NCBI GenBank assembly: GCA_964016885.1
Contig: OZ024762.1
Coordinates: 11,594,001 to 11,658,000 of the forward strand
DNA length: 64,000 bases
Reading direction: 5' to 3'
From: Eledone cirrhosa
Taxonomy: Eukaryota
Of this stretch, positions 7,488-63,343 are shown piece by piece. The notes under the pieces were generated by a model. That model did no database searches. It was not told where the DNA came from and saw only the letters and a list, made by a program, of their open reading frames with translations. The translations under genes were made by a program, and so were the position numbers. Each line of letters starts with the position of its first letter. The stretch's first letter is position 1.

Positions 7488-8436
7488 CTGAAAGTAGAAG
7501 AAAAAGTAAAGATAATTCATCAACAAGATGGTGTAGGACAGAACAAAAGAGAGACACAAAATAAAAACCCAATCACTGAGGAGGTCACAGAATGTGTGAC
7601 AAAAGAGGTTTAACAATATATAAACAACCATCTGGTTATTGAACAAACCAACCAGAAATTTATAATAAATTAAAGTGAAAACCAACATGACCCATATATT
7701 CATATACATACATATATATATATATATATATATATATACATATATATGTGTGTGTGTGTTAAGTATTTCCGAAGAAAAAGAGTGCTCTATGGATTGACTA
7801 GGGTCTTGAAAACTTTGGTAATGGAGTAGTTATATATTGTGTTGTTCACTTTCTAATCTAAATAAAATATATATTGGTTGGTGTTAGGAAGGGCATCCAG
7901 CCGTAGAAAACCTGCCAGATAGTCCTATACGAGCGAGACACAGTCACCCGAGCAATTTTGCCTCAAGTGGGACAGTTCCCGTCTAACCCATGCTAGCATG
8001 GAAGATAGACGTTAAACGACAATGATGATGATATATGTATATATATAGATATATATTTGTCAGTGTACAGTAACAGCTGTGTGACAAAACTTTTCTAATA
8101 AATATATTTTAACTTTTAACAAGTATTTTATTAGTTTAGTCTGAATCTACAGCCAGGTATTCAAATTGAACATGTTGGTGTTATTGACATTATCCATGAA
8201 TTATTGCCAGTCCAAACATGTATCGTCTTATCACCATCACCATCATTATAAACATCGCCATTAATATTACCACTACCATTATAATAATCATATATATATA
8301 TATATATATATATATATATATATATATATATATATATATATATATATATGGAAAGTTATATTTAAATTGTTGGGTTAACAACGAGTAAATATTTATAACT
8401 GATATAAAAGCACTCAACAAGTATTTGGAGTATATT

Positions 8437-8764
8437 TATGATATTAAATAAATGGAAACTATATTTATAAAACCATATTTATTTCGTTATACATATTTCA
8501 GGGATATCATATTAACAATATGTTATGCCATCCTCAGACAAAATACAATATAAACAGTCTTATAAATAAATAGATACGACATACCTTTCAATCACCTTGC
8601 ATTTGGTGATTGAAAGGTATGTCGTATCTATTTATTTATAAGACTGTTTATATTGTATTTTGTCTGAGGATGGCATAACATATTGTTAATATGATATCCC
8701 TGAAATATATATAACGAAATAAATATGGTTTTATAAATATAGTTTCCATTTATTTAATATCATA
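8437..8764. mobile_element. Fold-back element: 160-bp arms, 8-nt loop, hammerhead motif in each arm (+ 8656-8721; - 8480-8545)
   Basis: Arms differ at one visible position; TATTTTGT-CTGAGGA-stem II-GAAA-TATATATA-ACGAAATA; unfolded family copy at 24460-24610. Confidence 0.85.
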
Positions 8765-8990
8765 TATTTATTATAAGAACAGCTTAAAGTTTAAGCAAAG
8801 AATATATATATATATATAATCAACTATATCAAATAGCGCATGTCTGTCAGACAGGACAAATCTTAATTTTAATTTTGGATATATATATATAGCGAGAGAG
8901 AGAGAGAGAATATAATTTTGGTAGTATATATATATATATATATACACACACATATATAGGCTTTGGGTTTTGGATCCCTGTATATATATA

Positions 8991-9092
8991 TACAGGGTGT
9001 CCCTCCAAAATGTATACACTTTGATTACTTGTACAGGCAATATTTATTAGAATGCTGTTGGAGTGTATATACGTTTTTGGGGGGGACCCTAT
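8991..9092. mobile_element. Tc1/mariner-type MITE (TA-CAGGGTGTCC...GGACACCCTG-TA consensus); copies 23147-23263, 24178-24268, 25603-25684; partial copies 27566-27610, 28420-28474, 47335-47422
   Basis: ~30-bp TIRs containing AAAATGTATACAC, inserted at TA within (TA)n. Confidence 0.8.
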
Positions 9093-9129
9093 ATATATAT
9101 ATATAGGCGGTGGGTTTTGGATCCCCTCG

Positions 9130-59978: not shown

Positions 59979-60351
59979 CAGCACCGGATTTACCATTGTG
60001 CTTAGAAGTTCTTAAGCACAGGGCTCCGTTGGCCAGAGAGGAATTTTTTACAATGAATTTTTCAAATGTTTTCAAAGGTAAGAGGCCTCATAACTTAGCT
60101 AGTACAGGGCCTCATAACTTAACTAGTACAGGGCCTCATAACTTAACTAGCACAGGGCCGCATAACTTAGCTAGTACAGGGCCTCATAACTTAACTAGCA
60201 CATGACCTCATAACTTAACTAGCACAGGGCCGCATAACTTAACTAGTACAGGGCTTCATAACTTAACTAGCACATGACCTCATAACTTAACTAGCACAGG
60301 GCCGCATAACTTAACTAGCACAGGGCCTCATTTGTCCTAAATCCAGCACTG
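59979..60351. mobile_element. hAT-type MITE with internal 24-bp repeat x~10
   Basis: TIRs CAGCACCGGATTTA / TAAATCCAGCACTG; TSD TATCTGCT / TGTCTGCT; GGGCCTCATAACTTAACTAGCACA array 60083-60330. Confidence 0.85.
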
Positions 60352-60954
60352 TGTCTGCTTTGAGAGATGATGAAGCCATTTATCTTAGAAGAACTCCAGT
60401 TGGACACTTTCTCCAGACAAGCTGGTGATAGCAGTCCTGAAACAAAGGAATTCAATATCTATCTGGCCACAAAGGTCAGCATGTGTGGTCACTTTGACCT
60501 GCTTTGCTAACTTGGGAAATTATTGCTACAGATGTGCCAGGATTGTTATCAAAATGGTAGAAATAAGAACCCTTTAAAATGGTTTTGTTTTAAAGAACCA
60601 GAAGTAGTTTTGCCAGGGTTGGTAACAAAAGGGTAGAAATAGAAGCCCTTTAAACCTTTAACATTTACATTACTCTATATTTACTATTATATTTTCATGG
60701 TAAAGGCTTTACCTTACATAATTATCTTACATAACATGGAATCTATGAGATTTTGATATTATTTATTTTGAGAACAATACCTTAACATCAGTATGAGTGG
60801 CCAGTTACAGCCAGTTTGAACAGAAAGAGGTGAGGGAATTCTGGCCGGATACGGCTGGTTTAAATGCTAAAGGGTTAAAATGGTTATTTTTGTTTCATAG
60901 AACCAGAAGTAGTTTTGTCTGGGGTAGTAGAAAAAGGATAAGTATAGGAACCCT

Positions 60955-61529
60955 TTAACCCTTTAGCATTTAAACCGGCCGTAACCGGCCAGAATTCTCT
61001 CACCTCTTTCTGTTTAAACTGGCTGTAACTGGCCACTCGTATGAAATTAAGGTATTTTTCTCGAAATAAATAATATCAAAATCTCATAGATTCAATATTA
61101 TGTGAGATATTATGTGGGGTAAAGCCTTTACCATGAAAATATAATAGTAAATATAGAGTAATGTAAATATTATGTGAGGTAAAGCCTTTACTGTGAAAAT
61201 ACAATAGTAGATATAAAGTAATGTAAATGTTATGTGAGATATTATGTGAGGTAAAGCCTTTACTGTGAAAATACAATAGTATATATAAAGTAATGTAAAT
61301 GTTATGTGAGATATTATGTGAGGTAAAGCCTTTACTATGAAAATACAATAGTAGATATAAAGTAATGTAAATGTTATGTGAGATATTATGTGAGGTAAAG
61401 CCTTTACTATGAAAATACAATAGTATATATAAAGTAATGTAAATGTTATGTGAGATATTATGTGAGGTAAAGCCTTTACCATGAAAATATAATAGTAAAT
61501 ATAGAGTAATGTAAATGCTAAAGGGTTAA
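60955..61529 (-). mobile_element. piggyBac-type MITE with both ends and ~6 copies of the 72-bp unit
   Basis: TTAA-CCCTTTAGCATTTA ... TAAATGCTAAAGGG-TTAA; same unit as the 41765 array, reversed. Confidence 0.88.
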
Positions 61530-63343
61530 AATGGATGGTTTTGTTTCATAAAACCAGAAGTTTTGCCTGGGCTGGTAACTAAAGGGTTAAAATAAAAACC
61601 ACAACTTATGACTTAGGAATTGAAGTAATTTTAGATAAGATTCAAACTAAAAGATCACAGGAAGGAAGGAAAAAGAAAAAAAAAGTTAGCTAAATCCATT
61701 TTTGTTTTGTATTCTTGGTTCCCAAATAACGGGGGGGGGGATAACCGAGGGGGTGGGGAATGGGTAATTTTTCTAGGTTGTCTCCGTTGATGTTTAAAAA
61801 AAAACCCAATGAGACCCCCCCCCCCCCCCCCCCAAAACCCATTCTATTTATTTCATAACCTATGTGATTTCTAGTAATGTACTATTTTTGTCATGTAGAA
61901 TGATTTTAGAAAAAATTATCACAGGAATGTTACTACTTAAAATAAAATTTCGCCATACATTGATAAAAAAAATTTAATAAACCGAGGGGGCATTATTCAA
62001 GAAGCCCGAGAGTGGTTTTATTTATATTTTATTTATAATAGATTCTAGTTCTGATTCTCAAATTTGAAAACAAAAAAAAAAAAAATCTTTTTTTTTTTTC
62101 TCTTTCCCTTTCTCTCTCTCTCTCTCTCTCTCTCTCTCTCTCTCTCTCTCTCTCTCTCTCTCTCTCTCTCTCTCTCTCTCTTCCTCTCTCTCTGCCCTTC
62201 TTTCTCTACGCTTTCTCCCCCCACCTCTCTCTATCCCTCTCTATTTCCCACACTAGGTGTGGCTAATTGTGTTTTTTAAAAAGAGAGAGTGGGAAAATTG
62301 TGTCTGTGTGTGTGATTGTGTATGCATGTGTGTGTGTATATATGTGTATGTGTGTAAGCATATGTGTGTGTGTGTGTGTCAGATGTTTGGCCTCATAGAT
62401 TACATATATTCATTGTGTGTATGTGGGTGTATATATATATATATATATATATATGTGTGTATATATATATGTGTGTGTGTGTGTGTATATATATATATGT
62501 GTCAGATGTTTGGCCTCATTGTAGATTACATATATTCATTGGGTGTGTGTGTGAGAATGTGTGTGAATGTGTGCGAGTGTATGTGTCTGTGTGTATGTAT
62601 GTGTGCAAGTGTATGTATGTGTGTGTGTGTGTATTTGGTGTTTTTATCAACTATCACAGCTTTCAGGAAATCAGTTTTATCATGACATGTGAATGTCATA
62701 ATACATGAACAGTTTCATCTACAAAGACTTCTTATTACTACTACTACTACTACTACCTCCACCACTACTTGTATATTATCTATGATATTACAAACATTAA
62801 TTAGGGGGTCCCTCTCTAAACATTGTGAGGGCCCTGATTAGATCCCAACCAGTCCCTTCCCCTAATTCACCACAACTTGCAAGGATAGGGTATCTTCTGA
62901 AAAACTTGTTATACCTAACATTTTGGATGTGTTTGTCTAAATATATAGGTATATATATATAGATATGTGTGTGTGTGTGTATATATATATATAACAAAGG
63001 GATTGCGGTAAGGAACCAGATGGACCATAACGCACCAGAGTACTCAATACTTAGGGTAGTAGAGTGGGAATAGGAAAAAGTATGACCCCGACGGCAGAGC
63101 TCAAGCCGTTTCGACGGCTATTTGACGGTAGAGCTCAAGCCATTTCGACGGCTATTTCTGGACTAGTCCAGAAATAGCCGTCGAAACGGCTTGAGCTCTG
63201 CCGTCGGGTCATACTTTTTCCTATATATATATATATATATGTTAGGTAATTCCGAAGAAAAAGCAAAAGCAAAAGAAAAAAGAGTGCTCTATGCATAGAA
63301 CAGAGCTATTTAATTAGAAAGTGGACAACACAAAATATAACTA

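Follow-up and report, generated by a model that had tools for sequence, protein, structure and literature searches.

A stretch of 64,000 nucleotides (nt) from the genome of Eledone cirrhosa (assembly GCA_964016885.1, contig OZ024762.1, positions 11,594,001 to 11,658,000 of the forward strand; hereafter the window) carries short fold-back elements inserted into (TA)n microsatellites. An earlier reading of these letters only (the sequence-only reading) had pointed to a hexamer, GAGYRC, at 11 sites about 40-75 nt upstream of the 3' microsatellite junction, and had taken it for a conserved cis-signal. Comparison of sequences identifies GAGYRC as the 3' arm of a bulged hairpin that is conserved and composed of RCUC, a variable upper helix of 2-7 base pairs (bp), a loop, a 2-nt bulge starting with U, and GAGY. 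This hairpin usually occurs twice, in the terminal repeat and the leader of Penelope-like elements (PLEs) of the Hydra clade, and each copy of it likely positions the reverse transcriptase (RT) for a start a few bases to its 5' side.

Most of the sites in the window were located in short fold-back elements, in which a long arm ending in (TA)n is joined to an inverted short arm without the last 65-100 nt. A hammerhead ribozyme core (CTGANGA) was present in many of these elements. The predicted features are listed below, with the upstream hairpin of the two named hairpin 1.

7782..7787, minus strand: family D-like copy in which truncation within the hairpin has left only the 3' arm; it is joined to an inverted short arm at 7808-7864
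8410..8431, minus strand: hairpin 1, family A1, with ACTC, an upper helix of 3 bp, a TT bulge and GAGTGC; the long end lies near 8349, and the inverted short arm stops near 8770, before its own ACTC
8531..8537, minus strand: family A1 copy, hammerhead core CTGAGGA, situated 122 nt upstream of the motif
14734..14754, minus strand: hairpin 1, family B; long end near 14693; the master is a Hydra-type element with an open frame of 758 amino acids (aa) (locus L293)
14814..14820, minus strand: hammerhead core CTGATGA of the family B copy; the inverted short arm runs to 14880
17234..17239, minus strand: 3' arm only, the 5' arm being absent by truncation or deletion; hammerhead core 63 nt upstream
23731..23760, plus strand: hairpin 1, family A3/A4, with an upper helix of 7 bp and a TA bulge; the long end lies near 23821
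25496..25501, plus strand: family B copy whose 5' truncation falls within the hairpin, so that only the 3' arm is left; an inverted short arm is joined to it
26078..26102, plus strand: hairpin 1, family C, 3' arm mutated
27957..27989, plus strand: hairpin 1, family A3/A4; long end at 28046, CTGATGA core 148 nt upstream
28921..28947, minus strand: hairpin 1, family A5, with an upper helix of 4 bp and a TA bulge; the long end lies near 28863
29454..29479, plus strand: hairpin 1, family C, one base changed; in the family C master, hairpin 2 lies six nt past the long end and is followed by a Hydra-type open reading frame (ORF) (locus L467)
32901..32926, minus strand: hairpin 1, family C, lower-stem mismatch (ACTC/GAGC)
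33310..33335, minus strand: hairpin 1, family C, intact
47825..47854, plus strand: hairpin 1, family E, with ACTT in the window copy and ACTC in relatives
63040..63065, minus strand: hairpin 1, family C, intact
63284..63306, minus strand: hairpin 1, family D, compensatory GCTC/GAGC stem; long end at 63240, CTGATGA core at 63389-63395

All 11 hexamers reported earlier were recovered at their positions and on their strands; the whole window contains 61 GAGYRC matches. The whole hairpin was kept at six of the 11 sites (8410, 14734, 23755, 27984, 28921 and 63284), a point change was found at two (47849 and 29474), and the 5' arm was absent from three (25496, 7782 and 17234). Nine hexamers were located 43-67 nt from the microsatellite, in agreement with the range given before, but those at 7782-7787 (28 nt) and 47849 (85 nt) fell outside it. 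The elements had also been described as dissimilar families whose tails do not align. The flanks indeed did not align between families; however, some tails did, and the 11 sites represent about eight families. The elements of 23755 and 27984 aligned with 85.7% over 140 nt, those of 14734 and 25496 aligned with each other, and the arm beside 7780 aligned with the element of 63282. Three further sites belonging to the family of 29474 (family C; 33310, 63040 and 32901) had been overlooked.

Enrichment was analyzed in 60 blind 10-kb stretches (600 kb) of the 3.0 Gb genome, which is rich in (TA)n; 856 (TA)n junctions were detected. Counted per junction, the hexamer gave 55 sense matches at 40-79 nt, versus 2-9 per 20-nt bin elsewhere. 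When each sequence cluster was given one vote, no enrichment was found, with counts of 24/522 near the junction, 17/388 far from it and 22/522 in antisense. The bare hexamer thus failed the proposed test of positional enrichment, whereas a descriptor of the full hairpin (RCTC, a helix of at least 3 bp, a loop, an n-nt bulge and GAGYRC) passed it. With a bulge of n = 2, 44 matches in 14 clusters were obtained in the 600 kb, 37 of them 30-100 nt before (TA)n against a background of 9%. Bulges of 0, 1, 3 and 4 nt gave 5, 3, 4 and 6 matches, and ten shuffles gave 3-11 matches each. RCTC was nearly always found upstream of GAGY, and families with GAGC carry GCTC, so that the lower stem shows a compensatory A-U/G-C change.

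The RC of the hexamer is not universal, families H2-H6 (L417-L436) having TA or TT instead of AC after GAGC. A reading of the motif as a splice site was rejected by eye, the GTRAGT context being absent, and no known family of Rfam 15 matched L436:440-800 or L467:1200-1640. The 150 of 268 Rfam matches in the window that were listed were all to microRNA models and below the gathering score.

The parent elements were assigned by motifs. The Hydra clade of PLEs with a C-terminal endonuclease (EN) is defined by RW[K/R], DKT, a CxCX5C linker and, in place of CCHH, a CxxC/CxH pair around the conserved E and N (Craig et al., 2021, PMC8557442; here and below, statements on published work refer to parts of the papers cited). 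The masters of two window families, B and C, encode Hydra-type Penelope ORFs. The family B master was found by a pattern search for copies reading through the long end; copies with 758-aa open frames exist, and in 23 of 30 loci the motif preceded the likely start by 94 nt. Walking the family B 3' untranslated region (UTR) upward revealed no ORF within 1.5 kb. For family C, two translated rows showed a Hydra-type ORF after hairpin 2. RWR[A/S/T], a K/R variant of the RWK-type motif replacing GxKF/Y, and [S/A]DKT (DKG modified to DKT) were detected in all five masters compared (B, B2, H2, H3 and H5) and in C. The CxCX5C linker before the C-terminal GIY-YIG was found in 5/5 masters, CxxC after YIG in 4/5 and CxH in 4/5, and CCHH was absent by eye from B and B2. 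The Pfam GIY-YIG match scored 22 bits, just below the cut-off of 22.6. Insertion into (TA)n was observed in the hairpin-bearing families, and a hammerhead core in B, H2, H3, A1, A4, A5 and D; none was seen in family C in the 260 nt shown upstream. By these motifs the hairpin-bearing masters appear to be members of the known Hydra clade that are longer than described. They share RW[K/R], DKT, CxCX5C, the C-terminal GIY-YIG, (TA)n targets and, in the families named, a candidate hammerhead in the terminal repeat with the published elements (PMC8557442). The units found here are 3.5-5 kb instead of <3 kb, a soft Hydra feature, and the tail is about 65-100 nt instead of 30-40. In H2, H3 and B2 the length from hammerhead to hammerhead was 4.3-5.0 kb, with long UTRs.

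A Neptune or Penelope/Poseidon parent was rejected, as the hairpin-bearing masters have CxCX5C rather than CX2-5CxxC plus CCHH (Neptune) or no linker (Poseidon). Seven Neptune- or Poseidon-like GIY-YIG families (70 of the 150 matches listed) were without the hairpin, giving 2 strict and 4 relaxed matches which we read as other elements inserted past the element ends. The possibility that the window families are one diverged family with uniform conservation was borne out in part: the families are related and the masters found all belong to the Hydra clade, but conservation is selective, with the hairpin kept and the flanks not.

Some further features of these elements were recorded. The family C sequence viewed (L467:1240-1520; window 25952-26072, 29418-29535 and 63070-63224) contains no CTGANGA core and has another stable-looking stem-loop there without an Rfam match, which may be a replacement for the ribozyme or a variant of it. 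Family C also occurs head to tail, in arrays with a repeat unit of about 3.53-3.54 kb, at G000:C1:91476610-91487267 and 437200343-437210963. Family H2 (L436-L466) has 31 copies without a difference over 176 nt, and open frames of 844 aa are numerous in it; this family is very young and probably still mobile. In Neptune-type elements (L121 and L123 leaders; L031- and L121-type 3' ends), 3' ends also map to internal leader TATA/TAT, and in two families ACTCGTG follows an end at a distance of a few bases, a possible analogous signal.

Relatives from other organisms were used to examine covariation. Alignment of 40 of the 120 homologues listed yielded 79 related metagenome loci. In these, the strict descriptor matched 42 times in sense and never in antisense, while other bulge sizes gave 0-3 matches per strand. 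In a selection that avoided circularity by requiring just the 3' motif at 60-230 nt downstream of a hammerhead core, RCTC was found upstream in 63 of 68 cases. Among the 55 distinct cases, upper pairs 1, 2 and 3 were formed in 52, 42 and 39, and the bulge started with T in 54. Pairs 1 and 2 were jointly formed in 41 of the 55, compared with a mean of 20.2 and a maximum of 31 in 10,000 permutations that ignore relatedness; at other bulge sizes the values were 0, 1, 1 and 5. In 30 hand-picked hairpins, two-sided changes occurred at four of the seven pairs, and the CTC/GAG core was invariant. The spacing of the arms ranged from about 8 to >40 nt, with covarying inner pairs. G.U outnumbered A.C on the sense strand (11 vs 3; p=0.03). 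The hairpin was located upstream of the match in 32 of the 45 loci with at least 130 nt of upstream sequence (antisense, 4), and seven of the 13 misses were 5'-truncated matches. Hammerheads were found about 90-118 nt upstream of hairpin 1.

By eye, the hairpin was exact in three of six published Hydra consensi, namely Hydra-2_Amil, Hydra-2_Ajap and Hydra-1_Ajap (twice), from coral and sea cucumber (PMC8557442). In a Naiad/Chlamys control with six octamers, none of 21 places outside the Hydra file showed the hairpin by eye, compared with 4/4 in the Hydra file, line-broken octamers being missed (PMC8557442 supplement). In File S2 of the same paper, hammerhead stem III is ACTC/GAGT in five listed Hydra elements and so resembles the lower stem of the hairpin. 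This likeness may be a coincidence, as other listed elements and family B differ.

The full-length elements mostly carried two hairpins, 55-83 nt apart (31 pairs), with hairpin 2 located 34-84 nt before the ORF match. TA at -6 from the stem was the peak position (43 of 81 hairpins). A total of 370 insertion ends from six window families were mapped, at loci partly chosen for likeness to long copies. Among these, 160 were at or before hairpin 1 (132 within 10 nt), 208 were at +58 or beyond, and only two were in between. It was expected beforehand that the long end would be just before hairpin 2, and the family H2 query stopped short of that site. Of 30 copies in this family, 28 terminate; among these, 27 stop 1-7 nt short of hairpin 2 at a TATA microhomology and one differs by a substitution. 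Seven short arms stop 4 or 9 nt short of hairpin 1. All seven long ends of family H3a were at -7 from hairpin 2. In family C, 24 of 30 rows, some of which are duplicated, extend beyond the long end and reach GCTC after six nt; the second hairpin is complete in 23. A second end site 1-8 nt before hairpin 2 was thus found in three families (H2, H3a and C). The inverted partner arms of long copies did not reach the long end in 46 of 47 cases, and end positions shifted between TA registers (-2, -6; -4, -9). In six metagenome contigs, a 3' copy ending inside the contig at an AT-rich flank stopped 0-4 nt before a hairpin; the other 15 metagenome comparisons stopped at contig or query ends or were uninformative.

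By these positions, insertion ends fall 0-10 nt before hairpin 1 or 2, and the view that the motif visible in the window governs the inner (short) end is supported. The idea of a conserved cis-signal tied to the insertion end was upheld, with the bulged hairpin and not the hexamer as the probable signal. The spacing of the twin hairpins would explain both the one-sided tail and the distance of 40-75 nt noticed earlier, which corresponds to the spacing between two starts minus the length of the hairpin. Of the roles suggested by the sequence-only reading, a positioning signal for internal initiation is the best fit. A tertiary contact with the ribozyme is disfavoured because hammerhead stem III differs between families while the hairpin does not, and because family C has both hairpins and no CTGANGA core in the sequence shown upstream.

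The preferred reading is as follows. The element RNA would run through the terminal repeat into the leader, and the element protein would dock on each hairpin. The GIY-YIG domain would nick (TA)n, and the nicked end in TA could pair with UA or UAUA just 5' of a hairpin and prime complementary DNA (cDNA) synthesis. A start at hairpin 2 would copy hairpin 1 and the spacer, giving the long arm and its tail, and a start at hairpin 1 would give the short arm. One long and one short arm joined head to head would produce the usual fold-back insertion, in which hairpin 2 is not copied.

Several observations weigh against this reading. The hairpin is thermodynamically weak, with z-scores of -1.9 to +0.6 in 12 folds, none significant, and in families B, C and A5 the fold of lowest energy does not contain it; binding of a protein would thus have to stabilise it. 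One family H5 end is at -45, and 16 of 51 family B short ends lie 17-21 nt before hairpin 1. The second site of family B is a GCAC-N5/6-GTGC stem 9 nt past the end, without the bulge or the upper helix. The same read-through search that found the family B master gave none for A4 or D, and the clade and second hairpin of families A1, A5 and E are presumed. Among the published consensi, Hydra-1_Crog has one mismatch in the hairpin by eye and Hydra-1_Amil and Hydra-1_Obim have no clear copy (PMC8557442). The permutations take no account of relatedness, and the starts of Poseidon PAc are reported as non-homologous to the target (PMC11167929), in contrast to the TA microhomology found here. By sequence alone, moreover, an internal start looks no different from a cut made in the RNA at that position.

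Such a cut is the first alternative: the hairpin would direct a cleavage a few bases 5' of its base, carried out by a nuclease of the host or of the element or as self-cleavage, with RT then starting from ordinary 3' ends. It predicts the same two ends, and the hammerheads upstream of hairpin 1 indicate that RNA processing is part of the biology of these elements. However, the ends coincide with TA microhomology and move from one TA register to another, which resembles priming, no Rfam family matches the hairpin, and in the Poseidon assay the product size was unchanged by added 3' sequence (PMC11167929). We consider an RNA cut unlikely.

The signal might instead act in single-stranded DNA or a DNA intermediate, where it would guide the GIY-YIG endonuclease to resolve the insertion and trim each end. 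Craig et al. attribute the tail to EN-mediated resolution (PMC8557442), and Frangieh et al. cite a D. virilis EN that needs the tail for recognition (PMC11167929). Yet a duplex site is hard to reconcile with the variable spacing of the arms and their covarying inner pairs, G.U is commoner than A.C on the sense strand, and the inserted DNA lacks hairpin 2. There is little probability that the signal acts at the DNA level. It is more doubtful still that the hairpins control translation, transcription or RNA packaging and that the ends are nearby only because AT-rich tracts precede hairpins. Both hairpins are in the leader, with hairpin 2 close to the ORF match, and an AT-rich tract does precede each of them, but many other TA tracts exist in leaders and UTRs while only two of the 370 ends fall between the two sites, and the register of ends to each hairpin is narrow in unrelated families. 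Chance, neutral descent or protein-coding constraint, to which the lack of per-family enrichment of the bare hexamer and the location of the family B motif ahead of the first Met, where the frame is open, might point, is largely refuted by the sense-only matches and covariation in the metagenome loci and retains hardly any probability, given also the specific bulge size, the closed frame at the hairpin of subfamily B2 and the flanks that do not align between families.

A more specific version of internal initiation is put forward only tentatively, as somewhat improbable. In this two-site RNA docking code, a protein dimer would bind both hairpins on one RNA and prime both strands of the cut (TA)n, in each case at the UA directly preceding a hairpin, producing two cDNAs at once. 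If so, a single step would give a head-to-head insertion with a one-sided tail, and UA plus this hairpin of 20-30 nt would be enough to have any RNA copied into TA repeats, with the internal starting point open to choice.

A precedent for internal initiation is Poseidon PAc, whose RT starts internally at two sites bounding the tail (Frangieh et al., 2024, PMC11167929). Both systems show two internal starts with an interval equal to the genomic tail, an AT-rich target and a need for RNA 3' of the start. However, Poseidon PAc belongs to another clade and has one AC-rich stem-loop inside the ORF, whereas here two repeated non-coding hairpins are found, each 3' of a start.

Stem-loops of long interspersed nuclear elements (LINEs) generally lie inside the copied 3' tail, upstream of a terminal repeat. 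The putative end-setting hairpin described here, in contrast, is located beyond the end, is not copied and is present twice. The eel LINE UnaL2 and its short interspersed nuclear element (SINE) nevertheless offer a likeness, in that a small conserved bulged RNA hairpin near the RT start is needed for mobility (PMC1636434). Minimal hammerheads of PLEs and non-LTR (long terminal repeat) retrozymes are likewise short hammerhead copies from PLE terminal repeats (PMC4209133; bioRxiv 10.64898/2026.07.22.740005; PMC7229834); the window copies differ in being truncated fold-back stumps and not tandem arrays, and no tail hairpin is described in the parts of those sources covered. The hairpin and its duplication are not mentioned in the passages of PMC8557442 covered, and a description of the hairpin was not found in the literature searched, with Repbase and Dfam notes, subscription papers and several supplements outside that coverage.

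The hairpins bear on how PLEs, the closest relatives of telomerase, choose their start sites and why they leave a one-sided tail. The only in vitro study maps two starts and names no conserved signal. With a covarying, duplicated motif of 20-30 nt whose register to both ends is fixed, these matters can be addressed directly in the assay already available, for which the very young Hydra families of this genome with long open frames could supply the protein. The motif could also mark non-coding Hydra stumps for classification.

Other repeats were present in the window. Non-Hydra Penelope-like stumps without the hairpin were located at 14946-15370, 16596-16810 and 23285-23510 and resemble the terminal repeats of L131/L149 and L060/L124. 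Abundant dispersed SINE-like repeats at 181-402, 4393-4730, 15714-16089, 47421-47795 and other positions contain GAGTGC that is unrelated to the hairpin.

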